DNA from: Prorocentrum cordatum
Taxonomy: Eukaryota
Assembly (NCBI GenBank): GCA_963575745.1
Contig: CAUYUJ010000295.1
Location: 62,001-115,705, forward strand
DNA: 53,705 bases
Direction of reading: 5' to 3'
How positions within the stretch are numbered: the first letter of the stretch is position 1; every line of letters begins with the position of its first letter. The notes below the pieces were generated by a model. The model did not search any database. It had not been told where the DNA came from and was given only the letters and a program-made list of their open reading frames with translations. Shown here in pieces: positions 29,601 to 46,022 of this stretch. Position numbers and translations under genes: made by a program.

Positions 29601-32600
29601 AGGGGTCCCTGCCGCGGCCGCTGCCGCTGGTCGGACTCTGGCCTCTTGGCCCTGCCTCCGTTCTCGATACTGGCCGGTCCTTTCCCGGCCTGCCTCCTCC
29701 GCGTCCATCGCTTCGAAGATCCTCTTGCTGCACACCGCGTTGTGCGCGTGGCCAGCCAGCACCCGGCCGTGCTTGGCGATCGAGACGCACCCTGGGCATC
29801 CCGGCGTTGCGCCCAGCCGCTCGACGTCCGCCTTGAGGACGTACATCCTCCTCGGCGCCTGCGGCTGCGGCGACACCACCACAATTGGTGGCGGTCCGAC
29901 CTCTCCAGGTCCGACGATGGCCCGCGGCGCGCTTGCCGCACGCGGAGCCACGTCCCACGGCAGGCCCTTCAGGCCATCCCAGCCCGCCGTGATCCACTTC
30001 TCGCTCTGCGGCAGGCTGCGAAAGCCGACCGCCTTCTTCGCGCCGTCGCTCGTGATGACCATCATCGAGCCGTCGCGCGGGTGGTGGCCGATGTAGCGAG
30101 CCTCCACCATCTGTTCCTCCAGCGCGTTCTTCCTCGCGCGCTCCCCGGCGAACCGCGCCATCAAGCGCTCGCCGAAGAGCGGGACCGGCTTCCTCCACTG
30201 CCGTCCCGTGAGCCGCTGGAGAGCGGTCTTGCCATCCTGGCCGCGCCGGTATCGGTTGATTACCGATGCGGCGTGCTCCGGCAGGTGCGCTAGCACCGGG
30301 TGCTTGTCCTCCACCTTGACGCCCAGCTTGGACTCCAGGTCCATCTTGAGCGCCCGCACCTGCTTCTTAATCTCGCGCACCGTGACCTCGATCTCCCCAT
30401 TGGCCTGATGATCGGCCGGTGCCGACTCCTGGGGAATGGCCTCGAGGCCAGGAACCTCCTCCACCGCACGCCTCTTGACCAACAGGATCGCCGGCTCGCC
30501 GTCGGACTTGTTGACGATCTTCCTGTAGCCCAGGATCCGCAAGAAGCGTGCGAAGAACTTGATGGCGCAGGCGTCGTCGCCCTTCTTCTCCACGAATGTC
30601 GCTGCCATCATCTTCGAGCGCCGATCCCTAAGTACCAGCATCGGCATGGTGTCCGCGTCGTCCTGGCCCATGAAGGCGTAGTCGGACGAGACCACCGGCA
30701 CCGCCGTCTCGTCGTCCTCCGGTGCGCGGAGATGCGGCTGGCCTTGGCCCTTTGCCGCAATACACACGCGACACCAGCTGCGATAAGTCGCGTGTCCCAT
30801 CGCCTCGTGTTCGTCGATCTCCCTCTGAGAGGGCTCATGAGGTGCCTTCAGCACTCTCGGGCGAGCCTCCTCCTCGCCCTCGTCGGCCTGCTGTCCATCA
30901 GGAGCAGCTGGCAAAGCGTCGGCCGCAGCAGCTGCCGCTGGCTGAAAACCCGGCGGTCTCACGTCGGAAGGTCCCGACCCCGCCGCTGCCGCCCCCGCAG
31001 CCGATGCCGCCGGGGGCCGTGGTATTAAGTCCTCCAGTGGGCTTACGCCGAGGGCTGCCTCCTGGGGACTGTCTTCTCGAGGATCTCCAGCAGCTCCTCC
31101 TTCGACTTGCCGCTGAGGAGCTCCACTAGCTCGGACTTCGACTTCGCCGAAAGTCCCTCCTCGAGAGGAGCAACCGAGCCATGTTGGCCCTTCTTGAGGT
31201 AGAAGTTGTAGACGCCCTGCTCGCGATAGACCGGCAGCATCTGGTGCTTCGCCGCCTTCGCCTCCTTCTCGAGCATGCCTACCACGCGCTTGCCGATTGG
31301 GCTCTTCTCGTGGAATATCCAGCCGCCATTGCGACCCAGGAATGAACACTGTCCAGCTCCTGCTGCCTGCCCCACCGAGATCAACGGCTTGTGCACGTTC
31401 GTCACGCGTCCCTTGAGTGCTCGTAGCACTCCGTACTCGTCCTCCGCCTTGAGCTGCAAGCTGCCCTCGTCCGGGACGAGCTCACCACTGGCCGTACGAT
31501 ACGTGCTGCCGTTGCCCTCCATTCCCGTCGGCGGCGCGAAGCTCCGAGGGAATGCTGAGATAGCTGCACCGCTGTCCCAGTTGAACTTCATCCAGTCGTC
31601 CTGCGCGAAGGGGGAGAGGTCGACCGCCGCTATGCCGCGGCCGCTGCCGCTGGCGAGCTCCAGGCAGTCCAAGCTGCCCATGTCCAGAGCGGCGACCTCC
31701 GCTTCAGGCTCCTCCTCCAGGCTGCCTGCCGCCTTGCCGCCGGCCTTGCCGCCGCGGCTACCGACTTTACCACCAGCGCTTGCCCCCGTTGCGGATCCAG
31801 TTCCAGCCCTCGTACTCGATCCCTGCTCTTTCCTCCAGCAGTCGGATGCCTTGTGGCCCCATCTCTCGCAGTTCCGACAGTAGCCGTCGAAGCGCCCGCT
31901 GGTGCTTCGAGGTGCCGTGTGCCCTGAACCACGGCCCGAACCCGTCGGGGATGTGCGGGAGCCTGAGTATGATCCGTTCGTCGATTTGCTCTTCCCCTTC
32001 GGCTCCTGAGTCTTGCCTTTCCCTTTGCTCTTGCCGTCCTTGCCCTTGCCTTTGCCTTTGCCTTTCGGGGCTCCGAACGATCCGACGTCCATGTCGTCCG
32101 GATGATGCGCCCGCGCACGGATCGATGGCTCCTTGATCTTCACGCCGGTCCAAGCCTCTACGATCGTCATTACCTCGTTCAGACTGTCCTGGAACGTTAC
32201 GAGCCGATGCTTGTTGAGTACGAGGTGGTTCTCGATGTCCTGAGGCACGAGCATCTCGAGGGCCGCCATCTTGATATCCTCCGGCAGCTCGGCCAGACCA
32301 TCTTCTCCTTGGCGGCGTTCGTACCTGCCTATCTGCTGGATCCACTTCTCTAAGGCGGACCCCAGCTCGTCCGCGCTGCACTTCGGAGGCGAGATGATCG
32401 ACCTCAGGATCAGCCTCTTCCTCGGGCCTGTCGTCGGATCCCACCTGCGGTGGAGCTTCCGCCAGGCTTCGAGACCGTTCCCGTCGGGGGCGCCCGTCAC
32501 GAGGTCGTTGCTCTCGCTGCCGTCCGCCGTCGTGCTGAGCAGCGCCGCGTACAGCTGGTTGACCTTGGTCTCCAGCTCTGGAACTCCGTCGTGCACCGCC

Positions 32601-35600
32601 CGAGCTCCCTCGATCGTCACGGGGCGTTCGGCTTCGGCTGCCCACCGAAGAACAGGGCGAAAACTCTCTCCGTACACGCCGATCACGTAGTTCTCCATCT
32701 TGCGATTCCAGGCGCCGAACTTTTCTTGGTCGTCGCCCATCGTCGTGGGCTTGCCGATCCCCTTGGTGTCTACGAGACCTTGAACGGCTCCACCCGCGCT
32801 CGTCGCGCCTCTGATCTGCTCGCCCATCCGCTCGATCGCCTGCGGGATTGCCGCGAGGCCTCCTGCCACCTGCTGCTGAAGACGCTGATTCTCGTTCTCC
32901 AGCCTCCTCATCTCGTCGGCTGCCTGACCTATTTGAGCCGCGAACTCCTGCCTCAGCAGTTCGAACTGATGCCGAACCTGCTCGTCCATGTTTGACAGCG
33001 TGTCTCTCGGCGAGCTCCTCCCTGCTCTCAGCTATCTCCTGCCTCGTACGCTCGAGGTCCGTGATCCGTCCTAGGACTTCCTTCTGCGTTCTCTCGACAA
33101 CGTCTGAGGAGTTCTCCGACGGATGGTCCTCGATGTGTGCGAGGTCACGAAGCCTGTCGCCTGCCTCCCTCAAGTCGTGCTTGAACTGGAGCTGCTTGCG
33201 CCTGGTCTCGATCGCTGCGTCGCTCCTCTTGCCGCGCCTGCGGCCACTCTTCCCGGCCCCTGCCGGTTGCTCGGTCGCTGCCGAGCTCGCTGCGGCCGAT
33301 GCCGCCCTCTTCCAGCCTCGAGCTTCCTGCCAGCTCGCCGTGGCGCCCGCGGACGCGGCGCGCCGAGGCCTTGGTGGGGTCGGCAGCAGTGAGTGGCCAG
33401 CTCACGCTACCATGATGAGATAGTATGTCGATGGACAAGATATCTCTTTTCCATCTTGAGCCAAAATGGGTGCACGGAGGAGGGTGTCAGAATCACAATC
33501 GCACTACTGAGCATAACTGCGTCGACACCCATCAGCCCAGGACACCCAAGAGGCTGCCTCGGAGGGGTGTGCCGAGCGAGAGAAACGTTCAGCCAACGTG
33601 AACATGTCAATTCTGATTGCATCCCTCGGAAGAACACATTGACTTGGCCGAATGTTTCCCAGACGGCACCAAGCGAGTAACGATTAATCTTAAGTCGGGC
33701 GTCCCCCTACAGGCAGATTTCGGGCGAAACAAAAGAAAAACAAATAACATACTCAAACATACTTCAAACAAATCAAACACTATCGTCCCCAGACTATTGT
33801 TTTGACAATTTCTGATTTTTCCTCCTGTAGAGGGACACGCCCGACTTAGTATTACTTGCCTTCGCGTCCCCGCGCCGCCCCTTGGTAAGAAGCCGGCTCC
33901 CAGCCCTCGGCCGAGATGCGCATGGGCCTTCGCGCCCCTGCGGTGGCATGGGTCATGTAGGGTTCGGTCGGGCATGTCCTCCTACAGCTCGGGTAGGGGA
34001 TCGCCTACAGAAGTGATTTACCCCAGAATTAGTTTCCCCATCGAATCTACGCAACAATGCGTAGAATTTTCCGCAGATCTACAGACCAGTCGATCTACTT
34101 TTCGTAGATTCGATTGGGAAATCAATTCTGGGATAAATCAATTCTGTAGTCGATCCCCTGTTTGAACAGTCAGAACACATTCAAAAGTACTCAAAAGTAG
34201 TAAAATAACTCGTCTCCAGACAGCTTTTTCATACTGTGTTTGACTATTCCTCCTGTAGAGGGACGTGCCCGACTCAAATGACGACTGGCGGTTCGAAAAA
34301 AAAACAGGGGCAACGATCAGAAGGCCCCCGGCCGCAGGGAAACGTGGTGCAGAGGACGGTCAGAGGCTCTCAGCGGCGTCGACGCCCACGAGCAAGCTCG
34401 ACGAACCCGATGCACTCATCATCGCCCAGGGGGCCGCTGCGTGGCGGGCCCCGCCGGGCATCTCTGCACTGCCCTACTGCATCCGGTATACCCACGAGGG
34501 CCGGCCACGGCGGCGGCAAACCTGAGAACCGACCGACCCGACGGCGACACCGACACCGACCGCAGCTGACAGGCCGCGAGCAGCCTGAACTGGCGCAGCG
34601 ACGCAGCCGCGGCACGATCACCGACCGAACCGAATCGACCGAACGCGACCGACGCTGACGCAGCCGAGCCGACCGAACCGCGGAAACCCTTGTCTGCCTC
34701 ACCGCGCGGACTCCGGCACGTGCATGCCCTGCGCCGTGCACATCCCTCCTCACCCTGCGTCAACCCGCCCTCGGCGAGTCGCAGCCGCCCGATGCCGGAA
34801 TGCCGACGAGAAGCCACGAGAACCCTCGCGAAATCCTCGGACCCCGAAGTCTTGTGCATTCCTCCCTGAGCCCTGAGCCTATCCCTCCCTCGACGGTGCT
34901 CCTGATCTTGAAGGCGGCTAGGGGGTCTGACCTGGCTGGGGCCCCAGCAAAATCGGTCAGGCGGGGGGGATGAGGCCAACTCGGCTCAGAGTCGGTCCCC
35001 AGAGCCCTCCCGGGAGGAGGGGGAGGAGGAGGGGGAGGAGGAGGAGGAGGAGGAGGAGGAGGAGGAGGAGGAGGAGGAGGAGGGAGGAGGAGGAGGAGGA
35101 GGAGGAGGAGGAGGAGGAGGAGGAGGAGGAGGAGGAGGAGGAGGAGGAGGAGGAGGAGTCTGGTGCATGCGTCCTGTCGCGCTGGATCCGCTGTTCGCAG
35201 CCCCGGGGCCCGCGGGCGGCCCTCGGAGGCCGCAGACGGCAACAGCAGCTTCCCGGGCCCAGGGCCTCGAGCCTGCCCGCCCTTCCTGCCCGTCCATGAG
35301 AAGCCTTCCACAGGAGGCCCAAGCGTGAAACCCCAGGGCGTCCGTTGCCTTCTGGCGTGGGCGCGTCACGCGTACCATAAGCAGAGCCATCGACACCCGA
35401 GGAACGCATGGGCACCCTGGAGGCAGGCGGGGTGCTTCTTGGCGCGGGCCCCCACTGCTGCAGTGCTGGGCCACCTCGGACCCTTGGACGGCTCCAGCCC
35501 CGCTCGGCCCCCCCCCCGCGAGGGCTCCGACACGTGCATGCCGTGCGCGTCCCTCCTCTGATGGGCAAGCTTTCCACCACTACTACCACTATGTAGGACG

Positions 35601-35865
35601 GGGGGAGAAGGGAGGAGGAGGAGGTCCTCCTCCTCCCCCTCCCCCTCCCCTCCCTCCTCCTCCTCCTCCTCCTCCTCCTCCTCCTCCTCCTCCTCCTCCT
35701 CCTCCTCCTCCTCCTCCTCCTCCTCCTCCCCCTCCTACCCATGGCAGCGGTGGTGGAAAGTGGGCCCACCGTCCTCTGCACGCCCGCCCCGCCCAGGTGC
35801 CGCGTGATCTCGCGGGCCACCGACGGCTTCTCCGCCACGTTGAGCACCCGGACCTCCCTCGGCAT
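10310..35865 (-). CDS. TOP3A: DNA topoisomerase III alpha (type IA), multi-exon gene; C-terminal exons beyond about 10310 unresolved
   Basis: Exons in transcript order: 35770-35865, 35528-35557, 26032-26199, 25779-25814, 25436-25537, 24862-25049, 22186-22305, 18571-18805, 17982-18016, 16619-16781, 16209-16271, 15723-15833, 14935-14973, 14117-14284, 13774-13961, 11126-11232, ~10310-10510. Exon lengths and phases join in frame. Motifs: [15 protein letters not shown] (TOPRIM), [46 protein letters not shown] (catalytic Tyr), [57 protein letters not shown] and RHFLACCS favour alpha over beta. Confidence 0.93.
10590..10633. repeat. (TA)n microsatellite; also 11809-11854. (CA)n tract at 12421-12463
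   Basis: Direct reading. Confidence 0.9.
10742..10927. mobile_element. MITE family D (CCCAGACCCC...GGTCTGG; ~185 bp); copies 23763-23944 and ~36047-36231, partial ~9915-10076
   Basis: Shared internal GTCATGAAAAAATCATG and ACGACTCGGGATGAA, with short TIRs. Confidence 0.72.
11126..11232 (-). CDS. TOP3A: TOP3A exon 16 (RDEFLRWCV...[10 protein letters not shown])
   Basis: Matches the LDxALxxxF end of the core domain; CCTAG|G acceptor, GC donor. Confidence 0.82.
12115..12360. repeat. 10-bp tandem repeat TGGGGCCTCC
   Basis: Direct reading; more than 20 degenerate units. Confidence 0.8.
13774..13961 (-). CDS. TOP3A: TOP3A exon 15 (EKIQTRKYV...LGQALVEGY...LSKPTLRA...GQR)
   Basis: Conserved motifs; GC donor. 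Confidence 0.9.
14117..14284 (-). CDS. TOP3A: TOP3A exon 14 (VNDPLP...[29 protein letters not shown])
   Basis: Conserved GIGTDAT motif. The 3' boundary is non-canonical. Confidence 0.9.
14935..14973 (-). CDS. TOP3A: TOP3A exon 13 ([13 protein letters not shown])
   Basis: Matches the xLxVYPYxxW motif; CAG|G acceptor, GT donor. Confidence 0.88.
15723..15833 (-). CDS. TOP3A: TOP3A exon 12 ([13 protein letters not shown]...GLVVL)
   Basis: Conserved motif; GA donor. Confidence 0.92.
16209..16271 (-). CDS. TOP3A: TOP3A exon 11 (HPVRCV...WRVYEL)
   Basis: Continues HPPIHP and ends YEL before VARHFLA; GT donor. Confidence 0.85.
16619..16781 (-). CDS. TOP3A: TOP3A exon 10 (TETDSF...NDHAHPPI)
   Basis: RTET and DxAHPPI motifs. 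The 3' boundary is non-canonical (see findings). Confidence 0.88.
17982..18016 (-). CDS. TOP3A: TOP3A exon 9 ([12 protein letters not shown], catalytic tyrosine)
   Basis: GxISYPR active-site motif; GA donor, phase 2. Confidence 0.9.
18571..18805 (-). CDS. TOP3A: TOP3A exon 8 ([16 protein letters not shown]...[10 protein letters not shown]...HVAE)
   Basis: Conserved motifs; GT donor. Confidence 0.92.
19400..20430. repeat. 77-bp minisatellite, ~13 units
   Basis: GCATGCGAAC core recurs mostly at 77-bp spacing (19466, 19543, 19620, 19697; 19831, 19908; 19987, 20064, 20141, 20218). Confidence 0.88.
20457..20842. repeat. (GAT)n microsatellite, imperfect
   Basis: Direct reading. Confidence 0.95.
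21935..22110. mobile_element. MITE family G (TIR ACCACCC(C)AACCCAACCCGAAG); copies at 1-120 and forming both ends of intron 14974-15722
   Basis: Near-identical segment at 1-120; inverted termini. Confidence 0.7.
22186..22305 (-). CDS. TOP3A: TOP3A exon 7 ([19 protein letters not shown]...)
   Basis: Conserved motif; GC donor. Confidence 0.92.
24862..25049 (-). CDS. TOP3A: TOP3A exon 6 (VFRAVFS...[12 protein letters not shown]...)
   Basis: Conserved Top3 motif; GC donor, phase 2. Confidence 0.92.
25436..25537 (-). CDS. TOP3A: TOP3A exon 5 ([21 protein letters not shown]...)
   Basis: TOPRIM DxDREGE motif; GC donor. Confidence 0.92.
25779..25814 (-). CDS. TOP3A: TOP3A exon 4 ([12 protein letters not shown])
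   Basis: In-frame 36 nt, AG|G acceptor, GTGAG donor. Confidence 0.82.
26032..26199 (-). CDS. TOP3A: TOP3A exon 3 (EFPFNL...SAVRGHL...PDCQ)
   Basis: Matches the TSVSGHL region. TTGCAG|G acceptor, GA donor. Confidence 0.9.
26220..26302 (-). repeat. 3' LTR of copia element (83 bp)
   Basis: Identical to 33413-33495. Preceded on the minus strand by the purine tract GAGGAGGAG (26303-26311). Confidence 0.96.
26502..31349 (-). CDS. Copia Pol: integrase - C5 MTase-like - reverse transcriptase - RNase H (1615-codon ORF; true start probably by frameshift from gag-PR)
   Basis: IN: H..GH....WCRVC, SDY, KSDGE, NGEIE. MTase: [74 protein letters not shown]. Confidence 0.92.
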   Translation of the reverse strand: MFIPGSQWRLDIPREEPNRQARGRHAREGGEGGEAPDAAGLSRAGRLQLLPQEGPTWLGCSSRGGTFGEVEVRASGAPQRQVEGGAAGDPREDSPQEAALGVSPLEDLIPRPPAASAAGAAAAGSGPSDVRPPGFQPAAAAAADALPAAPDGQQADEGEEEARPRVLKAPHEPSQREIDEHEAMGHATYRSWCRVCIAAKGQGQPHLRAPEDDETAVPVVSSDYAFMGQDDADTMPMLVLRDRRSKMMAATFVEKKGDDACAIKFFARFLRILGYRKIVNKSDGEPAILLVKRRAVEEVPGLEAIPQESAPADHQANGEIEVTVREIKKQVRALKMDLESKLGVKVEDKHPVLAHLPEHAASVINRYRRGQDGKTALQRLTGRQWRKPVPLFGERLMARFAGERARKNALEEQMVEARYIGHHPRDGSMMVITSDGAKKAVGFRSLPQSEKWITAGWDGLKGLPWDVAPRAASAPRAIVGPGEVGPPPIVVVSPQPQAPRRMYVLKADVERLGATPGCPGCVSIAKHGRVLAGHAHNAVCSKRIFEAMDAEEAGRERTGQYRERRQGQEARVRPAAAAAAGTPPPKTARRITEPVAAAAAASAAPAAARSAAAPAVAATAARMRESQPVAPGFGAAAPSGGASSSSGAARAAEAAADVDMTAARSRLKRLAEVAPDDVPEALERGDPQPADVPVPVDMEDLAAQPAPAEGPQLPAGVAVVWNASEGRHMRVLALDMASIELVELGVLTRAKAELLPLVREQVSGHWASVGVDIADEEVDGIALSALQLGAVDVAEVYSPHRFSARAAEFQLRPGFAADLEELKEDGAPWDLRRPEDVKELEKQQERMDPILLTGSPPCEKFSLLRGLSAKFRTDEQEAAEMEEARHHLKVAVDAYWRQLRKPGRYFLHEHPWSARSWNEDIVKELVAHPGVFTVKGPMCRWGMKLTNPRSGQEEFVRKETGWVTNHPGLARRLQGTCSNVDGRAEWHRHITLVGGIARFAKVYPPKLVEAVLEELKDTLNDVGELSTAQVQQSGPVPVDAAVPPGDWTSYWDDVNGGYLEAGLVAQARAVEREWVKKQELIEIVPRSQAFAETGRPPIPLKWVDTNKGDAERPNYRIRLVVKEIKAKKRPDEQLEASEVFSAMPPLEATRSLVSLMVTWTREAPLHIQESLRKKGRKPGNFKIGFFDISRAHFYGKAQRRIFVELEEESRKEYGEDKCGLLLKSWYGTQDASKIWQGDYTELLEEHGYKAGVSCPAVFYKEVDETRLLGHGDDFAVLAQQQDIDSFEATLGKKYEFKKTANLGFDEGDDKQAVFLNRVIEVSAGVPPGGGRPCRHAMIEPDKRHAEIVIDELGLSKANGVDTPMEKRSADKQMMDAKSAALGAAEASRFRSLTMRVAYLSQDRLDLAEASKTLARSMQTPTEASWLMLKRVGRYLKRHPSTVTVFTEQKMFDKIRVYVDSDHAGCAVTRKSTGGFVAMLGHHVVKHGSNLQSTVSLSSGESEYYALVKGGSVGLGLHSLFADWGLDLKVELASDSSAARGHVQRRGLGKMRHVQSRYLWIQERVGKGDLSIAAVPGKNNVADVLTKRVGGSLLRRHMATLNIWDRTPSLTQKDFK
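31043..32989 (-). CDS. Copia Gag-protease (648 aa)
   Basis: Zinc knuckle [14 protein letters not shown] (CX2CX4HX4C); aspartic protease motif WDSGA; N-terminal coiled coil. Confidence 0.88.
   Translation of the reverse strand: MDEQVRHQFELLRQEFAAQIGQAADEMRRLENENQRLQQQVAGGLAAIPQAIERMGEQIRGATSAGGAVQGLVDTKGIGKPTTMGDDQEKFGAWNRKMENYVIGVYGESFRPVLRWAAEAERPVTIEGARAVHDGVPELETKVNQLYAALLSTTADGSESNDLVTGAPDGNGLEAWRKLHRRWDPTTGPRKRLILRSIISPPKCSADELGSALEKWIQQIGRYERRQGEDGLAELPEDIKMAALEMLVPQDIENHLVLNKHRLVTFQDSLNEVMTIVEAWTGVKIKEPSIRARAHHPDDMDVGSFGAPKGKGKGKGKDGKSKGKGKTQEPKGKSKSTNGSYSGSRTSPTGSGRGSGHTAPRSTSGRFDGYCRNCERWGHKASDCWRKEQGSSTRAGTGSATGASAGGKVGSRGGKAGGKAAGSLEEEPEAEVAALDMGSLDCLELASGSGRGIAAVDLSPFAQDDWMKFNWDSGAAISAFPRSFAPPTGMEGNGSTYRTASGELVPDEGSLQLKAEDEYGVLRALKGRVTNVHKPLISVGQAAGAGQCSFLGRNGGWIFHEKSPIGKRVVGMLEKEAKAAKHQMLPVYREQGVYNFYLKKGQHGSVAPLEEGLSAKSKSELVELLSGKSKEELLEILEKTVPRRQPSA
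33397..33412 (-). promoter_or_regulatory. Primer binding site TGGTAGCGTGAGCTGG
   Basis: Immediately follows the 5' LTR and starts TGG, complementary to tRNA CCA. The implied tRNA has A73 and U72, consistent with initiator Met (inference). Confidence 0.75.
33413..33495 (-). repeat. 5' LTR of copia element (83 bp), contains a DinoSL-like motif
   Basis: Identical to 26220-26302; TGAT...ATCA termini. Confidence 0.96.
35013..35158. repeat. (GGA)n microsatellite; other (CCT)n/(GGA)n tracts at ~6410-6500, 35610-35735, 47858-47910
   Basis: Direct reading. Confidence 0.9.
35528..35557 (-). CDS. TOP3A: TOP3A exon 2, 30-nt micro-exon ([10 protein letters not shown])
   Basis: Fills the ~10-aa gap between exon 1 and EFPF. 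ATCAG acceptor, GA donor, and a GGAG junction repeat shared with the exon 3 acceptor. Confidence 0.6.
35770..35865 (-). CDS. TOP3A: TOP3A exon 1 ([32 protein letters not shown])
   Basis: ATG at 35865, TOPRIM VAEKPS motif. GT donor at 35769; an alternative in-frame GA donor lies at 35773. Confidence 0.88.
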
Positions 35866-37136
35866 GGCCCCCGCGGGGCGCCGCCGCCGCAGGCCCCGCG
35901 GCGCGCCTCCGCGGCCCCAGGGCGCGGCCCTGCCCGGCCGGCGCCGCCCGCGGCCAGCATCCGCGCCCACCTCGCCGCCCAGCGGCTCGGAGGCTCTGCG
36001 ACGGTTGCGTGGTGACCGCCCCCTGATCAAAAGCAGGGCCGCCCCCCCCAGGCCCCCTCGCGCTGCGAAAAAATCGCGACGGGAAGTGTTTCACTCCTTT
36101 CGGCCCCTGGGGGCCCTCACCAGGCCACGTGACCGTCAAAGAACGACTCGGGATGAAAAGCTGGTCCCGGGGAATGGGTCCGGACCTCTGGGGGTCGCGT
36201 CATGAAAAAATCGTAACTTCGGGGGACTGGGCTGCTGGGCGTGAGTGGACAGCTCTCCGCCGCCATCTTGTGGTCATGAAGGAGACCGCGTCTGCATCGC
36301 AGAGCGGGGGGGGGCCTGGTGGGCAAACACCTGGCCCCGAGGTCTGGCCGCCGCGATCGCCGCGGCGACCTCCCAAACCGACCCAGAGGCTTTTGGTTCG
36401 GGATCGGACATCACGCAACGATGCGAGGGGCCAGCTGGATGACCGCCCAAGATCCTCGAGCACACGCTGGCCCTCGAGCCTATAAAAGCTTGTGTGTGGG
36501 CCGTCCGGGCAACGTGAGGCCGCCCGCTGGCAGGGCAATGGTCTTGACCCATCCGCACACGCCCTCCATCCTGGTATGGAGGAGGGGGGGCGCGATGGAT
36601 TAGAGCGTGTAATCTGGACTCAGGTAGCCACAGATGGCCTCTATTACTCAAGATAGCGCAAGATGGCTCAACACACGCCCCAAGAGGCCCCAAGACCGCC
36701 CCAAGACGGCTCCAAGTGGCCTCGAGAGCCTCTTTTGGACGCCTCCGAGAGGCCAAACTCCTTCTCGAACCTGAGGAACCTCAATGAAGTTAGCCTTCTC
36801 GTGGGTTAGCCTTAACCTCCTCGCTCCCGATGGGCTTTGAGGACTCATGGTGGCTCCAAGATGGCCCAAGAGAGCTCCACGAGTAGCCCAAGAAGGCCTA
36901 AAGACGGCCCTGAGAATGTCCAGGAGCGCGCTAAGAGAACCCGAAGAGGCGATGTGCAGGGCTCTTGCGAGGGGGCTTACATTGAGAGCCCCCCTTCGCT
37001 CAAAGCCAAAAGAGTTGAACTAACCCGAGGTTGTTGACGGATGTTGAATAGGTATCCTGGGAAGGCTTGTGGGCCAAGATGGCAAGATGGCTCCGAGATG
37101 TCTTCAGATAGCTCAAGATGGCGCAATAGTTCCTCT

Positions 37137-37534
37137 CACACCGGCGCATCAGCTGCACCGCCCAAGGAAAAGGCTACGGGGAGGGGAGGGTGCAGGGGAG
37201 GAGCCTCAGACGCAACGAAAAAATGTCACGAATTCCGGCCCCAAAATGCGATGACACGGAGGCCGAGGACGGACGATGATGTAACCAGCACCTTTTGCTA
37301 CATAACATCCTGGTGCAATCTACATTGTCTCATAAACTGCGGATTGGGAGTGTGCGCCACCGCGCGCTCCCCCTCTTTGGGCCCGGCTCCGCGCCCACCA
37401 CGGGGTCGCGCCGTTCCAGAGGGAGCAAAGAGGTAAGCCGGTAGCGGCGGCGCCACGTCCGCCGGCGGCCCCAAGGGGAGGCGCACACCGCCAACCCCCA
37501 GAACCGGGCACCAAGGCCCTACCGAATACCCCCC
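37137..37534. repeat. Split direct repeat A (398 bp); second copy 37931-38328
   Basis: Copies offset by 794 bp; no mismatch noticed on manual reading. Confidence 0.93.
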
Positions 37535-38330
37535 CCTTTGGTGGCTTGCCCAAGAAATCCTCACCTCACAGGGCGGGCTGGGCGGGACAAGCGTGCGACC
37601 ACACACCTGTCCTAGAGCCAAAATGTCAACGGACCGTGCTATGCATCATGCTGCCGGTCCGCATGCTGCTACTCTATGCTGCCCTACTCGCGTTCAACTG
37701 GCACTGAAGCATGAGTAGGTTAGCACTGCCAAAAGCACAAGAACACAGGGAACCGTTTTCCGGTCACCTGGGCGTTTCCCCGCGGATCCGCACATTTTCG
37801 GTGTACCGGTCCATCCGTGCATTCTGGGGCAGAGAGGCTGCACTCTTCACACATCCCTGCAACCCCTCCTCCCACTCACCCCCACCCGCAGCAGGGCTTC
37901 GCTGTGACTGCGCACACGCGCGTGCTTCACCACACCGGCGCATCAGCTGCACCGCCCAAGGAAAAGGCTACGGGGAGGGGAGGGTGCAGGGGAGGAGCCT
38001 CAGACGCAACGAAAAAATGTCACGAATTCCGGCCCCAAAATGCGATGACACGGAGGCCGAGGACGGACGATGATGTAACCAGCACCTTTTGCTACATAAC
38101 ATCCTGGTGCAATCTACATTGTCTCATAAACTGCGGATTGGGAGTGTGCGCCACCGCGCGCTCCCCCTCTTTGGGCCCGGCTCCGCGCCCACCACGGGGT
38201 CGCGCCGTTCCAGAGGGAGCAAAGAGGTAAGCCGGTAGCGGCGGCGCCACGTCCGCCGGCGGCCCCAAGGGGAGGCGCACACCGCCAACCCCCAGAACCG
38301 GGCACCAAGGCCCTACCGAATACCCCCCGC

Positions 38331-40670
38331 TTACGCCACGGTGGCGTTCCCAAACTTGCTACACTTACGGCATCTCTGGTGCACTGGAGTTGCAGCCCAC
38401 GTCGATGAAGTCGCTGGCACGCCGCCACAGATGGCCCAGTTCCAGCCGCAGTGCGTGGAGGCCACGCTCGCAGCCACGTGCAGCTTGCCGTCGACGCACT
38501 GGACGTACGTGGGGGGGCCCTGCCCCGCCAGCACCGCCACATCTCCCTGCAAGAGTGCAACGTCCTCCCGCAATGTCTTCAAGGTGCGCTCCGCTGCCTC
38601 CGCGGCCGGGGTGATCTCGGCCAGGAGCCTGGGGAGCAGCTCCTCCGAGAGGGCGCCGACGTGGCACTCGACGATGGACTTCACGCTCTGCTGGGAGACG
38701 CCTCCCATGATCTTGGCCATCTTGCCCGCTTCCTGCAACAGCCTGTCGTGGACGTCGTCGAGTACAAGCCCGTCTGGTTCTTCCACGCGCCGGGAGATGC
38801 CGCCACCTCGGGAGCCGAGGGCGGCGTCCCTCACGTACCGCAGCACCGCCGAGCTCCCCCACCTCCCAAAGATCTGCACCACGGAAATCGGGTAGACCGC
38901 GGCCATGCGCTGCGCCCCCGCCACCCGCGCAGAGTGGCCCGTGATGTGCAAGTCGTCGACGCCCATTAGCTCCACCACCTCACGATAGAACTTGACAGTG
39001 CTGTCCTTGGACACGGGCTGCCCGAACCCGTCCACGATGAGGGGCCACTGCTCTTCGAGAATCCACCGGCCACCCAGCCAGCAGCGCCCTTGCTCGTCGC
39101 GCCGCGCCTTGGCCCTGGCATCCAAGGAGGCGCCGACCACGCGGCGCAGGGCTGCCACCGGGCATAGGGGCGCAGGGCACGCACAGCCAAGGCAGCGCTT
39201 CTTTCCAAGCGCCCGCACGTCTGCTTTGGAGGCGGGCAACAGCCACTCCGCGCAGCCGCATGGCCCCTCCTCCTCGCCCATGGGGTCGAAGAAGACAATG
39301 TGCTGGACCATCGCGGCGGAGGACTCGATCTCGCGCAACATCCAAGCTGCTGACGCGACCATGACATCGACGCCCGCCGCTGGCCATGCATCCCGGCTCC
39401 CGCGCGAAATTTGGTCCAAAGCGCCTTGACTTCGCAACCGATCGATGGGCAATGGGTCCGCCTGCCGTGCCGGGCCCATGCCCCTCTCCAGCGACCGGAC
39501 CGCATCGCTGCAGGCCAGTTTCAACTGGTCCGTCCACGGGCTCCCCAACAGGACGTGCTGGCGCTTCATCGCCGATATGTAGGCGGCCCCACTCCGGTAG
39601 CAGCCGCGCCTCAAGAGCGCCCCCGCGAGCTCCACCAACTCCGCACTTAGTGGGAACGGGGCGAGCTTCCGCGCACTGCAGCGGTCGTACCACCATTGGA
39701 GTCGGGACCTATGCGAATCTCTGCTTGTCTTCGCGAAGCGGGCGGGCCTCAACGCCTCCACGGCGTTGGCATCTTCGGCAAAGGCGTCCAACCCCTTGGC
39801 CGCGCCCTTCCTGCACGGCCGCTGCGCAGGAGCCAGGTCGTGCCAAGGGTGCCCGTCGCCCTCGCCGCCCCCTCCCGGAGCGCGGGCGCCGCGTACCTTC
39901 CTGCGCTTCCAGCTGGGCGCAGGGCAGCCTTTCCTGCGCGCGACCTGCTCGGGGACCGCCGCAGAGACGATGGACGCGTCGTCGTCGCTCGACTCCGATC
40001 CCGACTCGCCCTCTGCCGGGCCATCCACGCCCGCAGAGGAGTTGCGCCCCGTCGCGGGGAGGTGCCGCCCCCGAGCGCCGCGCTCCGCCAAGGCCTGCTG
40101 CCTCCTGGCGAGCGCGGACGCCTGCAAGCGAGACGCGACGCCAGGCTGACAGGCCGCCGGGCCCTCACCAGCGCCTTCCAGCTCGGCCCTGCGAGCGCTC
40201 ACTTCTGACGCAGTCGCGGCAGCCCGGGCGCGCGCCAGCGCGGATCCTGGCGCCGTCGCTCGACCCTCGCCACCGCCATCACTGCCCCCCGCCTGCGCCG
40301 ACAGGGCCAAGGCCCTGACAGAGGCGAGATGCCTTGCGGTGGCTGCAGATGCCATGGCCACGAAACGGCTGCAGCTGCTGGATCGGGCGCCGCCCGATGC
40401 TCGAGGCAAATGGGTACGGATGCCCTGCCGACCAGCAGGGGGAGGTGGGAGGGGGAAAGGCCGGCGCGCACAGCACGGCCGATCCTCGCGGGCAAAACCA
40501 TGCCCACGCGGCAGCACCAAATAACACGCGAGGAGCCCTGCCGACCAGCAGGGGGGCGGGAGGAAGAGCCGGCAGGCATGCGCAGCACGGCCGGAATACG
40601 GGGCACGACCATGCCCAGGGTGGCGACGAGCACTACCATGCCCATAATTTTTTTCAACCATTCCACCCAT
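38331..40670 (-). CDS. DIRS tyrosine recombinase (true start may be the internal Met near 40355)
   Basis: Catalytic R-K-H-R-W-Y set: MLREIE, SKAD, TGHSAR, GRWGS...LRY. Confidence 0.88.
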   Translation of the reverse strand: MGGMVEKNYGHGSARRHPGHGRAPYSGRAAHACRLFLPPPCWSAGLLACYLVLPRGHGFAREDRPCCARRPFPLPPPPAGRQGIRTHLPRASGGARSSSCSRFVAMASAATARHLASVRALALSAQAGGSDGGGEGRATAPGSALARARAAATASEVSARRAELEGAGEGPAACQPGVASRLQASALARRQQALAERGARGRHLPATGRNSSAGVDGPAEGESGSESSDDDASIVSAAVPEQVARRKGCPAPSWKRRKVRGARAPGGGGEGDGHPWHDLAPAQRPCRKGAAKGLDAFAEDANAVEALRPARFAKTSRDSHRSRLQWWYDRCSARKLAPFPLSAELVELAGALLRRGCYRSGAAYISAMKRQHVLLGSPWTDQLKLACSDAVRSLERGMGPARQADPLPIDRLRSQGALDQISRGSRDAWPAAGVDVMVASAAWMLREIESSAAMVQHIVFFDPMGEEEGPCGCAEWLLPASKADVRALGKKRCLGCACPAPLCPVAALRRVVGASLDARAKARRDEQGRCWLGGRWILEEQWPLIVDGFGQPVSKDSTVKFYREVVELMGVDDLHITGHSARVAGAQRMAAVYPISVVQIFGRWGSSAVLRYVRDAALGSRGGGISRRVEEPDGLVLDDVHDRLLQEAGKMAKIMGGVSQQSVKSIVECHVGALSEELLPRLLAEITPAAEAAERTLKTLREDVALLQGDVAVLAGQGPPTYVQCVDGKLHVAASVASTHCGWNWAICGGVPATSSTWAATPVHQRCRKCSKFGNATVA

Positions 40671-40739
40671 ACGCCACTGCAGACACGAAGGCGGGCTCCG
40701 GCAGCGCTCACAGCATGCCCAATGCCGCCCGCCAGCGGC

Positions 40740-43700
40740 CTAAACTGACCGCGCGCCTGCACCCGGAGCGGCACTCACAGCGCGCTCCCCCTCGCCAGCA
40801 CGACCATGCTGGCGACGATGCCCCTGTGCCAACCCTCCGGGGCGACCACCCCCGAGGAAGGCCCAAGGCTGGCGGCGGACCGGCCGCGAGGGCACAATGC
40901 CCTGGAGCACCTGCGGGATCGCGGAGCCCTCGCCCACCCTGGAGAGGTCGTCGGCCACGTCGTTGTCTTCTGACCAGTAATGCGCGGCCGTCAGGTCGCT
41001 CATGCCTACCCCGAGCTCCAGCTGCGCCTCGATGACGATGGCATTGACGAGCGGATGCCTCGCCTTCCGGCGCACGACGCTCTGCAGGGCGCCGGAGGCG
41101 TCGCCGCGGAGCCCCAGCTGGCCCTCGGCATCTTTGATGAACGTGGCCCACGTGGTGATGGCCAGCAGGAGGGCGTACGCCTCCCACAGCGGCTGGCTGC
41201 CCGGATCCTCCTTCAGGGCGCCTGTGGCGATCTCGTCGGTGGCGTCCCAGACGGTGTAATAGAAACCGTGGTAGTGTTTGCCACCATCGCGAGAGAACCA
41301 TGCGCCGCTGCCTGTGGTGCTCGCGTCGAAGCCGATGATGAACTCCAGAGGGCGCTCGTCGACGCAGAAGGCCCTTGGAAGGCTGACCAGCCGCCGCTCT
41401 GAAAAATGGATTATCCAAGATAGCGCCAGAGATACCCTTTCGCGCCGAAGGACGGCCGCCGACTCACCAGCAGCCGGCGGAGCGGACACAGCCGCCCAGA
41501 TCATTTGGGCGAAACCTCGGAGGGCAGGGGTGACGGAACCTACCCAAGAGGCCAGCCCCGCGAACGCCCTCAGATCGCGGCGCTGGATCAGCGGCTGCTC
41601 GACGAGGCGCAGGGCCCCGCTGAGGAGTTTCTCCGCCTGGTCCTCCGCGACGGTGATGAGAACGGCGTGGATGCGGTCGCCCTTGAAGGCATATTTCATT
41701 TCTGCGCCGAGCCACGTGACCGACTCGCCGTGCTTGCCCTTCGTCCACGCCATGCGGAAACCGAGAGCCTCCCACAGCAGGAGCAACGTTAAGACAGCCA
41801 TCGATCGCTCCTCGGGCTCACCGACGAGGACAACCAGTGGGTCGTCGACGTAGCACTGCAAGTGGGCTTCCGGTGCGGGCACTGTGGCCGCAGACGCCCG
41901 CATCAGCGCTGCTGCAACCCTGCCCCGCACCAGGGGCCCGGCGATATGGCCAAACATGACCGTGAGGTACTGGAAGAACCCCCACTTGCCGTCGACGCGG
42001 GCGGAACCGCAGAGGTACCTTCGCTCCCCTGGGTGTACGCGGAGCTGCTTGAAAGCGTCCGTGAAGTCCAGGACCAGGATGCCGACCCGGCCGCGGCGCT
42101 GGGCGGCGCGCCCGGCCGCCCGGAGGGACTGCACGGCGTCGTACAGCCTGGGCAACACTACCCGCTCTGGGATCCTCGCCAAGGCGTTGACCCCGCTACG
42201 GCGGAGATCGTGGATAAGCCGGATCTTCAGCTTCCCGGACGCCCTCAACTTTGCAAGAACAGCCACCTTGGACAAGTGGCATTTCCCGGCAAGCTCTTCC
42301 AATTCCTCCAACGTCTCCCGCCAGATCAGGTATCCAGCGTCCAACTCGGCCTTCAACGCAGCGTCGGCCTCGGCCGCGTACTCGTCATAGGACGCGTAGT
42401 TGTGGAACCCCCACGCGGCAGGCCACGGCGCCAGCTCGGTCCGCGCCAACCCCGCGTACTTGTAGGGCTTGTCCATGGCTGGGAACACGCCGCAGACCGG
42501 GATGTCCTGGTCGATGCCCATGGGGGTCGCGCCGGCGGCCCACTGCCCAAGCACGACGTCTGGGCCCCCAGCCGCCGTCAGCATGGCCGCCAGGAGGTGC
42601 GCCTGCAGGCCCGATGGGGCGACGCCGATCGGCGCGGCGCGGCTGGCCCATAGGGCCGCCAGGGCTTCGCGGGCGCGCCCCACCACCGCCGCCGGAAAGC
42701 CTGAGTTCTGCTCCGTCCCAAGCAACTCCATGACCGCGCGGACCTCCGGCAGCACTGCCCCGTCTTGGCCAGCGATGATGGGCGCCAAGGCTGCTCTGAT
42801 GTCCCTGCCGACGCCGGGCCACCCAGGGACGCGGGCCACCGACAGGTGCGGATCCCGCAACCCCCCCAGCGCCATCTTATTGGCTGCCTCCCGCTGGGCC
42901 TTCCGGCTGGGCGCCTGCAGTGGGTCGCGGGCGCCGTGCTCGTCGAAGGTAACCGTCGCAATCGACGGCGGCGACGAGCGGTCAGCTGCAAATGCCCGGG
43001 CCAATGCCTCGCATAGGTCCTGCGGGTACTCCGCGGCCAGCTCGATCCTGCAGCACCGCGACCCGTCCGGCCTCGTCGCGAGCCCCTCCAGGGGAAGGTG
43101 AGGCGGATGCACCGGCGGCCCCGGGCATCGCACGCCGAGCTGTCGGAGCCACGGGGCGTTCGTCACCCACTTCGTCCCCTTCCTGTACTGGCCTCCGAAG
43201 CAGCACTGGTCCCCCTTGACGACGAAGACGCCCGGCAACAAGACGAGCAACCGGTACTCCTCGAACTCCCACATCAACGACCTCTCCGGGCCCTCGATGG
43301 AGAAGAAGCCGCCGGCCTGGATCTGCACCTTCGCCAAGCGCGCCGTGCGGACGGCCCAGGCGTTGTCCTCGGTGACGCACCGGGGCCTGCTGTGCCGCGT
43401 TCCGAGGCCGTAAGGCTGCTCCGTGCTCCGCAACACGACCACCCGGGCATGCAGTCTACGCCGTCGAGCCCGCACGAACGTACGGTATGGTGGTGCGAAG
43501 TGGAACCATCGATAACTGCGGCGGCGGATCCGCCGGGCGAGGTCGCGGAACTCTGACAATGCCAACATGTCGAAACCGCCGCTCCTCGCCCGACCAGGGC
43601 TCCTCGCGGTGAAGGTGTCCACCTTGACGCCAAGCTTCCGGACTGCAGTGGACAACCCTGCGGCGCCGACAGCCACCTCGGCGAAGTGCTGTCTGAAGGG

Positions 43701-43964
43701 CTGCTGCGGCATCTCTCCATCGGTCCGGGCACCCAGATCCTTCGGTACCCCTCGCAGGCGCTTCGCCGCCAGCCGCTCGCCCCAGGAGCGGCGGCGGATC
43801 CTCGGTGCGGCGAGCTGCCCGGCCGCGGGCGCCGCGCCTCCCGACCGCGGACTCCCGCGGGGGCGGCCAGGGCGCGGCTGGGCGCGATCCCGAGGAGCGC
43901 CCGTGGGCGCGAGGGGCGAACAGGAGCGGTCATCGAGACGAGGCGCGGGGACATTCCGCCGCAC
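40740..43964 (-). CDS. DIRS Pol: degenerate C5 MTase-like domain - reverse transcriptase - RNase H
   Basis: MTase-like: FAEVAVGAAG, HFAPPY, FSIEGP, DQCCFG, RKGT. RT: LIHDLR, LDFTDAF, MFG, YVDD. RH: FDAS, WEAYA, RGDA, NDVADDLSR. Confidence 0.88.
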   Translation of the reverse strand: MRRNVPAPRLDDRSCSPLAPTGAPRDRAQPRPGRPRGSPRSGGAAPAAGQLAAPRIRRRSWGERLAAKRLRGVPKDLGARTDGEMPQQPFRQHFAEVAVGAAGLSTAVRKLGVKVDTFTARSPGRARSGGFDMLALSEFRDLARRIRRRSYRWFHFAPPYRTFVRARRRRLHARVVVLRSTEQPYGLGTRHSRPRCVTEDNAWAVRTARLAKVQIQAGGFFSIEGPERSLMWEFEEYRLLVLLPGVFVVKGDQCCFGGQYRKGTKWVTNAPWLRQLGVRCPGPPVHPPHLPLEGLATRPDGSRCCRIELAAEYPQDLCEALARAFAADRSSPPSIATVTFDEHGARDPLQAPSRKAQREAANKMALGGLRDPHLSVARVPGWPGVGRDIRAALAPIIAGQDGAVLPEVRAVMELLGTEQNSGFPAAVVGRAREALAALWASRAAPIGVAPSGLQAHLLAAMLTAAGGPDVVLGQWAAGATPMGIDQDIPVCGVFPAMDKPYKYAGLARTELAPWPAAWGFHNYASYDEYAAEADAALKAELDAGYLIWRETLEELEELAGKCHLSKVAVLAKLRASGKLKIRLIHDLRRSGVNALARIPERVVLPRLYDAVQSLRAAGRAAQRRGRVGILVLDFTDAFKQLRVHPGERRYLCGSARVDGKWGFFQYLTVMFGHIAGPLVRGRVAAALMRASAATVPAPEAHLQCYVDDPLVVLVGEPEERSMAVLTLLLLWEALGFRMAWTKGKHGESVTWLGAEMKYAFKGDRIHAVLITVAEDQAEKLLSGALRLVEQPLIQRRDLRAFAGLASWVGSVTPALRGFAQMIWAAVSAPPAAGESAAVLRRERVSLALSWIIHFSERRLVSLPRAFCVDERPLEFIIGFDASTTGSGAWFSRDGGKHYHGFYYTVWDATDEIATGALKEDPGSQPLWEAYALLLAITTWATFIKDAEGQLGLRGDASGALQSVVRRKARHPLVNAIVIEAQLELGVGMSDLTAAHYWSEDNDVADDLSRVGEGSAIPQVLQGIVPSRPVRRQPWAFLGGGRPGGLAQGHRRQHGRAGEGERAVSAAPGAGARSV

Positions 43965-44063
43965 TGCAGAGCATTCAGGGGCTGGGCTACTGCCGCCGTG
44001 GCAAGATGCCTCCGCCCCTTCACTCGCCCCGCATCCCTCGCCAGAGCAGGCCGGGGATTGGCC

Positions 44064-45624
44064 TCACTTGGGCTTGCCCCCCTTGCCCTTGCCGCCGCCC
44101 TTGCCTTTCGGAATCGGCTTCCAGCCTGGGTGGGTCCTGCAGTCGATGCTGCGATGCGGCTGGCGGCACCACTCGCAGCAGTGCACCCTTGGCGGGTGGC
44201 TGCTGCACGGCGTCGTGCATCCGCCCTCGTTGCGGCTCCACTCGAAACAAATGTCCGAGCCGTTCTCTGCGCGGAGGAACCGGCCGTCCTCGCGCCTCTG
44301 GTTGACCCAGTTGTTCCACTCGGTGGTGCCCCGCATCTGCTTCGCGTCCCCCTGCCCTGACTGCGCCGCGTCCCTGGCCGCGGCCGCCTTCCGCTTCATG
44401 GCCCTCTTGCCCATGCCAGGCGGCGTCGCCGCTGACCCCGCCGCGGCCGCGGGGCGGGCGGCGCCCGAATCTGGCGGCACGGGGGGGGTACTCCTGCCGA
44501 CGCGTCCACGACGGCGCCCGCGCAGCATGCCCCCCTTTCTCCCAGCTCGTCGCCTTCTCCTTGAGGTGCTGGTCCCAGAAGTCCTTGCCCTCAAAGCCCT
44601 CCACGGCGGCCAACAGCACCGAGTTGTACGGGCGCTCCGGCTGGAACGTGCTCAGGTTAGGAGAGCTCTTGTGGAAGGCCCGCTGCCGCCTGAGCTCGTC
44701 CGGCACGAACTCAAATCGGAACTCCCATTCGGCCATTGCGGCCACCCACCATGCCTGAGGGTGGAGCTCTGCCAGCCGCCGGAAGTTCCTGGCGTAGGCA
44801 TCAGCGACGCCGCGCTCCACCACATCGGCCATGACCAGCGTGGGCACTGCGAACTCCCACGCCGCCATCCAATCGTCGAGACAGGACGGCCCCGGCACCT
44901 CATGTGGGACGAATGCTCCTTGCGCATTCTTGTGGTGTATCGTCAGCATGAGGTGCCGCTCGCGACGGCCGCCGTTCGGCCCCCAAATCGCCATATCGAA
45001 TGCCAACGGGTTCAGCTCTGCATCCGCGATCCGCTTGATCACGGAGAGCTGGTTGTCCGTCGGCGCCAGCTCGCGGGGCAGCGGCAGCGAGTTGATGGCC
45101 AGCCACCGGCCCCGCATCTTCTCGAGCTCAACCTCCTCGAGGGGCGTCACTGTGAGCCTGGACCCTTGGTCAAAGAAGTCCCTCACACGGAGGACGGGGC
45201 CCGTCGCCGACTCGATCGCCCCACTCCCGGACCCGATCGTGGCGATCACGGGCGGCTTCGCAGGGCCAGGCGGCTCAGACGCGCCAGCCACAAGGCCCCC
45301 TCCAGGCGCTTGCTGCGAGGCCTCGGACCCGCTGATCAGCGGCAGCCCAGCCAGCTGCCGAGCCACGTTGAAGAGCAGCACAAGCCTCGTACGCATCAGG
45401 CCGCCGCCCCCGACGGTTGCCGCCGACACCGCCTGGAGGTAATCATCCACACCCACGGCCGCCAAGAGCTTCATGTCGGCAAACTCTGGCTCCCCGAGGT
45501 GCGTGGCGACCTTCGTCCAAATGTCCTCCCCGACATTGGCGAACTGCCGCGCCGCGGCGAAATCAGCCATGGCGCCGAGCTCCTCCGGCGACGGCATCAG
45601 CGCCTCCATCGCTGCGGCAGCCAT
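44064..45624 (-). CDS. DIRS Gag-like protein with C-terminal Cys/His zinc finger, interrupted by a 1-nt frameshift at a C8 run (44481-44488)
   Basis: ATG at 45624 (MAAAAMEALMP). ORF 44020-45696 switches to the frame of 44064-44594, which carries CFEW..GC..PC...HCCEWC..PH...C. Confidence 0.7.
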
Positions 45625-45678
45625 GGCAGCCCGCGCAGCGCAGATACAGATCTTGAGACAACAGGGCCCCCCCCGCTT

Positions 45679-46022
45679 ACAAGCGTGCGACCACACACCT
45701 GTCCTAGAGCCAAAATGTCAACGGACCGTGCTATGCATCATGCTGCCGGTCCGCATGCTGCTACTCTATGCTGCCCTACTCGCGTTCAACTGGCACTGAA
45801 GCATGAGTAGGTTAGCACTGCCAAAAGCACAAGAACACAGGGAACCGTTTTCCGGTCACCTGGGCGTTTCCCCGCGGATCCGCACATTTTCGGTGTACCG
45901 GTCCATCCGTGCATTCTGGGGCAGAGAGGCTGCACTCTTCACACATCCCTGCAACCCCTCCTCCCACTCACCCCCACCCGCAGCAGGGCTTCGCTGTGAC
46001 TGCGCACACGCGTGTGCTTCAC
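45679..46022. repeat. Split direct repeat B (344 bp); second copy 37587-37930; contains a DinoSL-like 22-mer
   Basis: Copies offset by 8092 bp; one mismatch noticed (37921 C vs 46013 T). Confidence 0.93.

Follow-up and report, generated by a model that had tools for sequence, protein, structure and literature searches.

Why does a retroelement in a 53,705-nucleotide stretch of Prorocentrum cordatum DNA (the window) carry, inside its repeats, a sequence that resembles the dinoflagellate spliced leader (SL)? Dinoflagellate genomes are very large and rich in retroelements, and many of their retroposed genes are tagged by relic leaders. Comparison of the element with itself, with public sequence runs and with related loci indicates that split-direct-repeat tyrosine recombinase (YR) elements of the DIRS order conserve this motif as a leader-derived module, and that the 22-mer in the window is a diverged member of it. 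A fixed and conserved leader core of this kind provides a concrete link between two hallmarks of such genomes, universal leader trans-splicing and rampant reverse transcription.

Two copies of a leader-like 22-mer in the window

A first-pass annotation of the window had reported an ungapped SL-like 22-mer on the minus strand at 45704-45725, matching the leader at 19 of 22 positions. Comparison with the published DinoSL consensus, as quoted in PMC7245778, confirmed this match; the chance expectation for at least 19 of 22 identities on both strands of the window was 2.7e-4 (binomial). The 22-mer occurred exactly twice, at 45704-45725 and, letter for letter the same, at 37612-37633 on the minus strand. 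Both copies showed three mismatches to DinoSL without gaps, at leader positions 6, 8 and 20, and both retained the terminal AG. The rest of the window held no further site within three mismatches of DinoSL, and 100 dinucleotide shuffles of the window yielded no match.

The 22-mer was in sense with the open reading frames (ORFs) of the element. Its last base, 45704, lay 79 nt ahead of the gag ATG at 45624, as the earlier estimate of about 80 nt had suggested. The second copy, at 37612-37633, first described as an internal B copy, belongs to A2, the second copy of repeat A. The placement of the SL-like sequence at the 5' terminus of the element did not hold up: it begins at position 298 of the 344-nt repeat A and ends 25 nt before the 3' end of that repeat.

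A third leader-like match at 23968-23982 (two mismatches to a 15-mer) was found beside a dispersed repeat. It was rejected as a chance match because the other three copies of that repeat were without it. The dispersed repeat measured about 110-190 nt, with copies 76-82% alike at 9910-10021, 10741-10927, 23763-23944 and 36046-36231; no coding potential was noted in it, and the copy at 36046-36231 was placed just beyond the YR element's 3' end.

The carrier is a DIRS-order retroelement with split direct repeats

Self-comparison of the window identified the carrier as a DIRS-order tyrosine recombinase retroelement at 37137-46022 on the minus strand, in the order A1, gag-pol-YR, B1, A2, spacer, B2. 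Repeat A1 (344 nt; 45679-46022) forms the 5' end of the element. Repeat A2 (344 nt; 37587-37930) differs from A1 at one position (99.7% identity), outside the 22-mer, and directly abuts B1. Repeat B1 (402 nt; 37931-38332) begins at the YR stop codon, and B2 (402 nt; 37137-37538), which forms the 3' end, differs from it by one mismatch (99.75%). All four repeats lie on the minus strand. That A1 and A2 differ at a single base, and B1 and B2 likewise, suggests that the insertion is young.

This A1-ORFs-B1-A2-B2 arrangement is the split-direct-repeat layout, in which the B1-A2 junction joins the two ends of the element. It deviates from the simple scheme by a spacer of 23-48 nt between A2 and B2. 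In the window the spacer is 48 nt long (37539-37586, minus strand) and opens with a C-rich box, CCCGCCCAGCCCGCCC (37586-37571). Directly behind A1 lies a G-rich box, AAGCGGGGGGGG (45667-45678, minus strand), the counterpart of a CA(A/G)G(C/T)GGG box in relatives; AAGCGGGGGGGG was missed by the regular expression for the G-box, having T where the pattern demands A or C.

The proteins agreed with this classification, carrying the tyrosine recombinase catalytic set together with a reverse transcriptase/RNase H pol. The YR ORF (38331-40670, minus strand; 779 aa) was recognised through a family alignment and a Cre-type profile match. In an alignment of 18 homologues, the catalytic residues R446, K482, H579, R582 and Y612 were invariant and W604 nearly so, and a profile built from the 18 found 17 Cre/Tre sequences (E 7.7e-7 to 1.9e-5), the matches covering their catalytic C-terminal part. 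Pfam Phage_integrase matched 9 of the 18 homologues, while the window protein itself had no Pfam match. A C-terminal extension of YR (residues about 730-770) contained H731, C741, C767 and C770, invariant across the 18 homologues, and may be a zinc-binding module.

The pol ORF (40740-43964, minus strand; 1074 aa) matched RVT_1 with E 5.3e-6 and 26.7 bits, under the cut-off of 29.6 bits; a YVDD motif and an RNase-H-like tail were read by eye. The gag-like ORF (44020-45624, minus strand) had no Pfam match and five homologues of 40-49% identity. Its match to relatives switched reading frame between about 44494 and 44426: they aligned from 45594 to 44368 or 44494 in one frame and from 44426 to 44121 in another, with their Cys/His knuckle motifs in the latter. 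Such a split over two frames points to a probably defective copy, unless an indel in the assembly lies behind it. Retrieval with gag gave no relatives among viral contigs or metagenome contigs.

No integrase, protease or methyltransferase family was found by Pfam in any carrier ORF, and the other long ORFs of the window were without Pfam matches. Features of the DIRS1-like superfamily were absent, with no inverted terminal repeats in the element and no methyltransferase family detected in its ORFs. The only inverted repeats found in the window were low-complexity arms at 35007-35747. These long arms, at 35007-35158 and 35625-35747, consist of (GGA)n facing (CCT)n and lie about 470-590 nt apart. 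The earlier description of the carrier as DIRS-type is thus borne out by the tyrosine recombinase, the reverse transcriptase and the A1-ORFs-B1-A2-B2 layout.

The element in public sequence runs

Contigs of four public sequence runs were compared with the element: X1 and X2 (organism A), X5 (organism B) and X7 (organism C). Those of X1, X2 and X5 matched at 99-100%, motif region included. A 151-nt contig of X5 spanned 45607-45757 with one differing letter, and a contig of X2 covered 45679-45944 with no differing letters and 28 extra letters. At 45886-45910, other repeat A copies (X2, X5, X7) carried a palindromic insert of 28-34 nt that is missing from the window copy.

Run X7 contained a diverged family covering all 30 bins. 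Four of its contigs broke at 46022, the presumed end of the element. In one X7 contig, only 39 letters separated A (at 45735) from B (at 38328), about 65 nt fewer than on the A2-spacer-B2 path of the window. According to the contig summary, the 3' copy of this relative may be without the motif.

A leader core is conserved among diverged relatives

Relatives were collected as 53 metagenomic loci (L001-L053; 294,330 nt), fetched by YR protein patterns alone and hence blind to the motif. The patterns were built from a 9-sequence alignment, the 18-sequence alignment being too divergent. YR proteins of the relatives were 23-43% identical to that of the window (best aligned segment). The same pol was found in 32 of the 53 loci (tblastn), and the gag-pol-YR order was the same wherever contigs were long enough.

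Searching with leader positions 2-22 and up to four mismatches gave 18 matches in 16 loci, all in sense. When the search was made with DinoSL positions 7-22, a 16-mer, and up to two mismatches, 30 sense matches were found in 27 of the 53 loci and no antisense match, against a chance expectation of 0.08 per strand across the loci. From zero to five mismatches, the counts were 18, 5, 7, 1, 20 and 102 in sense and 0, 0, 0, 2, 14 and 104 in antisense. Background thus begins only at three to four mismatches, where it is symmetric between strands, and 18 of the 30 matches were perfect.

Clustering of the 32 sites, window included, by their 40 upstream nucleotides gave 27 clusters: 26 unrelated metagenomic contexts and the window. 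With 26 unrelated upstream contexts, the core matches cannot be copies of one sequence. Nor are they assembly chimeras formed at a shared word, since the upstream flank repeats together with the core in L008, L037 and L049 and pairs with the downstream flank.

The 27 sites were selected by the 16-mer, so that only the edges of conservation are informative in their per-position match to the leader: positions 8-22 matched in 89-100% of sites and position 7 in 81%, while positions 1-6 and those from 23 onward were near random. The right edge coincides exactly with the end of the leader exon, and positions 21 and 22 (AG) matched in 100% and 93% of sites. At position 6, A was present in 1 of the 27 sites (P about 0.004, assuming independent sites). 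The T at this position in the window is therefore the state typical of the family, and the changes at positions 8 and 20 are private to the window copy, which is also unusual in keeping leader positions 1-5. The motif had been described as a full-length SL-like 22-mer; this is apt for the window match at 19 of 22, but the conserved unit in the family is the 16 nt of positions 7-22.

Capture of an SL RNA gene, or a match by chance, has nothing beyond sequence similarity in its favour. An SL RNA gene comprises exon, GT donor and intron; here the core is followed by GA in the window and by variable bases in relatives, and Rfam at its gathering threshold gave no match. For chance, the expectations were 2.7e-4 in the window and 0.08 per strand in the loci, where 30 matches were observed. 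Both can practically be dismissed.

A neutral relic, in which the leader entered once or often through retroposed spliced RNA and persists without function, would fit the frequency of relic leaders upstream of dinoflagellate genes (PMC7245778, PMC11453091) and the drift of the window copy at three positions. It is at odds with 18 of 30 perfect cores among near-random adjoining bases in elements whose proteins are about 22-43% identical, and with the location of the core inside a repeat, with element sequence upstream, instead of at the 5' edge of a retrocopy. Retention without function therefore seems very improbable to us.

Position, flanking boxes and predicted folding of the core

The core occupied a fixed structural place in the relatives. 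It was found upstream of gag in nine of the ten loci with at least 600 nt of room, the exception, L046, having no core there. Among the 16 loci offering at least 1100 nt behind YR, eight had it 602-1058 nt after the catalytic Tyr and eight did not; of 25 loci with less than 1100 nt, 9 also had a core behind YR. The complete A1...B1-A2-spacer-B2 layout was seen in L037 and L049 (A 102-109 nt, B about 128 nt) and parts of it in L008, L005 and L010. Repeats of the relatives were short, with A at 102-116 nt and B at about 128 nt. From the end of the core to the 3' end of repeat A there were 17 nt in L037, 19 in L049, 22 in L008 and 25 in the window.

The distance from core to gag ATG was not fixed, at 428-963 nt in eight relatives versus 79 nt in the window. 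The first-pass annotation had made conservation among copies the test of its proposal. The outcome speaks strongly in its favour, the core being kept in 27 of the 53 relatives, always in sense and in the same structural place; its spacing to gag varies.

Two boxes distinguished the copies. A G-rich box followed the core copy ahead of gag at 14 of 27 sites (background 1.9%), and a C-rich box followed the copy behind YR at 7 of 27 (background 1.0%); no site had both. The window follows this pattern, with AAGCGGGGGGGG after A1 and CCCGCCCAGCCCGCCC after A2. The boxes might serve for priming, for long-range pairing or as a splice donor. By eye, the short cores of the G-box and C-box showed complementarity along 5-11 nt. 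Mutual inverted repeats in the 60 nt that follow A1 and A2 were considered and rejected, since 196, 71 and 306 of 500 shuffles equalled the observed local alignment scores. A G-rich tract was also frequent upstream of the core in relatives. Contigs L001, L009 and L033 ran in the order pol-YR-(B-A with core)-gag, which reflects either elements arranged head to tail or an assembly that passed from one to another by way of their common repeat A.

In most relatives, the core was placed at the apex of a predicted hairpin whose arms differ by locus yet stay complementary, often pairing an upstream CTTG with the closing CAAG of the core. Arms were swapped among 25 loci, one site each, after the near-duplicate L044 and two sites near contig ends had been dropped. 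Native arms formed 17.3 cross pairs on average, at a mean MFE of -32.4 kcal/mol, compared with 11.2 and -26.5 for swapped arms, and none of 2000 permutations reached the native pairs or MFE. Such covariation of the arms also counts against a functionless relic. Three relatives folded singly gave z-scores of -2.5 to -3.0. The window copy had no enclosing hairpin (0 cross pairs); its core was predicted to be single-stranded between two stem-loops, and the window folds were not better than shuffles (z -1.4 and -1.5).

These folds bear on the possibility that the core is a cis-acting mimic. The RNA would then not be trans-spliced at the motif; the core, displayed in a hairpin loop or between stem-loops, would recruit host leader-RNA factors, with export, translation, stability or nuclear re-entry as the outcome. 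The leader core contains AUUUUGG, the Sm-type site of the leader. The apical position of the core in relatives, the advantage of native over swapped arms, the z-scores of the single folds and the predicted single-stranded core of the window are all consistent with a mimic. So is the retention of positions 7-22 only, as expected of a binding site rather than a complete 5' leader. A mimic leaves unexplained why conservation ends at the splice junction, why the distance to the 3' end of A is fixed and why both A copies have the core, and the folds of the window itself fail to exceed those of shuffles. We know of no binding factor for a displayed leader core, and regard this explanation as rather unlikely.

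A Copia-type element with leader sequence in its LTRs

The window also contains a complete Copia-type LTR retrotransposon at 26220-33496 on the minus strand. Its ORF of 1615 aa matched RVT_2 (E 4e-11), and its 83-nt LTRs (TG...CA) are the identical blocks 26220-26303 and 33413-33496. A 5-bp target duplication, GATTG, was present, as were PBS-like and purine-rich tracts, with TGGTAGCGTGAGC after the 5' LTR and GAGGAGGA before the 3' LTR. Each LTR carries TCCGT, GCAC and an exact copy of DinoSL positions 8-22, starting 17 nt from the LTR start. The 53 loci fetched by YR patterns included no relatives of this element. The presence in one window of two unrelated orders of retroelement with SL-like sequence, as proposed earlier, is upheld by the DIRS-order carrier and by this Copia element with its RVT_2 match and leader positions 8-22. 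A general SL-mimicry strategy, by a cis-encoded leader or by leader-guided strand transfer as first suggested, is a candidate reading of this.

A proposed role in forming and copying the genomic RNA

The comparisons above show the motif to be a leader-derived module of repeat A. For its role, we tentatively favour as the best explanation that the core would act in splicing and in an R-like role, providing end redundancy for a trans-spliced genomic RNA. We hold this just short of probable. The module may have originated by reverse transcription of the element's own trans-spliced RNA. Conservation that stops exactly at the last base of the leader exon points to mature trans-spliced RNA as the source, and not to an SL RNA gene.

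Elements with such short repeats would depend on leader trans-splicing of read-through transcripts to form the 5' end of their genomic RNA, and this proposed reliance would explain why the core is retained. Splicing would use as acceptor the AG at the end of the encoded core (45705-45704 in the window) and would thus be scarless. Genomic RNA would then begin with a real leader followed by a 17-25-nt tail of A, and the same sequence would recur in A2. This redundancy of about 35-47 nt could stand in for an R region. The first cDNA end would pair with A2, and the missing upstream A (and B) would be copied from the internal B1-A2 junction, following the DIRS model. Loss of A at leader position 6 would remove an internal AG, so that splicing would not occur there and relic copies would not stack.

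Several results favour the trans-splicing proposal: a family-wide core found only in sense, in independent contexts, at a fixed place and with sharp edges; depletion of A at position 6; and very short repeats (A 102-116 nt in relatives, 83 nt for the Copia LTR). It also fits the dependence of DIRS elements on a copy of their ends kept internally: in DIRS-1, incomplete transcripts give full-length copies only with the help of an internal complementary region (PMC7192593). Of the full-length Polarella cDNAs that bear DinoSL, about 70% are described as starting at leader position 2 or 8, a clustering that the authors suspected to be a capture artefact (PMC7245778). These starts parallel the full-length form of the window and the truncated form of the relatives and the Copia LTR.

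Other results weaken the proposal. The closing CAAG of the core is predicted to be paired in most relatives, which could hide the acceptor, and because positions 1-6 are unconserved, cDNA of a full real leader would have a mismatched 3' tip. A 3' copy is absent in 8 of 16 loci with room for it, L046 is without a 5' copy, and the 3' copy in the X7 contig may be without the motif. The window copy lacks an enclosing hairpin. Finally, A1 and A2 share the core changes at positions 8 and 20, so the last transposition gave no sign of re-templating from the canonical leader.

The core might be an RNA-processing signal only, a relic leader being a good trans-splice acceptor context that frees the RNA of promoter-less elements from read-through transcripts. 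It would then have no part in reverse transcription, and the A2 copy would be a by-product of repeat regeneration. Retention of the terminal AG, in 100% and 93% of the 27 sites at its two positions, agrees with this, as do the very short repeats and the depletion of A at position 6. An acceptor needs little beyond AG; 16 letters kept across 26 unrelated contexts exceed that need, and in the predicted hairpin the AG is base-paired. A role limited to processing is accordingly unlikely in our judgement.

A wider form of the trans-splicing proposal is possible, if on the doubtful side. At least two orders of dinoflagellate retroelements, DIRS-like YR and Copia-type LTR, would have given up a promoter-defined R, with the host's trans-spliced leader serving as a universal R. 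[quoted passage not shown] If true, this would account for repeats being only 83-116 nt long. Leader trans-splicing would then be a required step of retrotransposition in dinoflagellate genomes, linked to the heavy retroposition of ordinary genes.

Comparison with known systems

The R region of LTR retroelements is a short sequence near both ends of the genomic RNA, with a TAR-like hairpin, and serves the first template switch; its 5' edge is set by the transcript start and its 3' edge by the poly(A) site. The leader core resembles it in that it would be a short sequence near both RNA ends, in forming a predicted hairpin in relatives and in adjoining the point where 5' and 3' contexts diverge. 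In this putative R role it differs in that the core would be supplied or matched by the host's trans-spliced leader and not by an element promoter.

Among the close counterparts of the carrier are the DIRS-like elements of Symbiodinium, including SymbioDIRS, which have an A-coding-B-A-B layout and a Pfam-poor reverse transcriptase (de Mendoza et al. 2018, PMC5890265). In common with them, the carrier encodes its tyrosine recombinase in an ORF of its own, has a divergent reverse transcriptase and follows the same order of repeats. Versions without a DNMT domain co-exist in Symbiodinium, and no DNMT domain was detected in the window element. A leader-like motif in the repeats, as seen in the window element, is not mentioned in the main text of PMC5890265, where the term "spliced leader" occurs 0 times.

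DIRS-1 also keeps an internal copy of terminal sequence, the ICR, from which full-length elements are rebuilt (Malicki et al. 2020, PMC7192593). DIRS-1 combines the ICR with inverted terminal repeats, whereas the family of the carrier has split direct repeats and the B1-A2 junction plays the part of the ICR. VIPER/SIRE of Trypanosoma cruzi is likewise a split-direct-repeat YR retroelement in a host that trans-splices all its mRNAs; unlike in the carrier, no leader sequence is reported for its repeats in the available text of PMC6681497. In Cer1 of C. elegans, too, retroelement RNA meets host leader trans-splicing (PMC3315495). In contrast to the proposal made here, SL1 is found only on a 2.4-kb spliced subgenomic mRNA of Cer1, the 8-kb genomic RNA not being trans-spliced, and the Cer1 LTR has no leader copy according to the text available from that source.

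Another close counterpart is the relic DinoSL that retroposed genes carry (Slamovits and Keeling 2008, summarised in PMC7245778, PMC5585692 and PMC12014239). Like the core, such relics are copies of the leader encoded in the genome, lie ahead of an ORF in the sense direction and are frequently cut short at about position 7-8; for both, reverse transcription of trans-spliced mRNA is the explanation. As in a relic, only the mature leader exon is represented in the relatives, in sense at 30 of 30 matches and with the match ending at position 22. A relic leader marks the 5' boundary of a retrocopy, with nothing of the parent upstream, and decays. The window core, starting at 298 of 344, has 297 nt of element sequence upstream within the repeat. 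It is also duplicated in A1 and A2, held at a fixed distance from the repeat end and conserved across deeply diverged elements.

This likeness matters for annotation. Core-bearing elements will be caught by surveys in which an upstream DinoSL relic is taken as the sign of a retrogene; one such survey described "RNA-dependent DNA replication" as enriched among retrogenes (PMC5585692). Where dinoflagellate assemblies are poorly annotated, the 16-mer with its G-box/C-box syntax is an easy means of finding the ends of elements.

DIRS-like elements of dinoflagellates and the relic leaders of retrogenes are both already known. The full-text literature searched, made up of main articles largely outside subscription journals, gave no description of a conserved leader core built into the repeats of retroelements.
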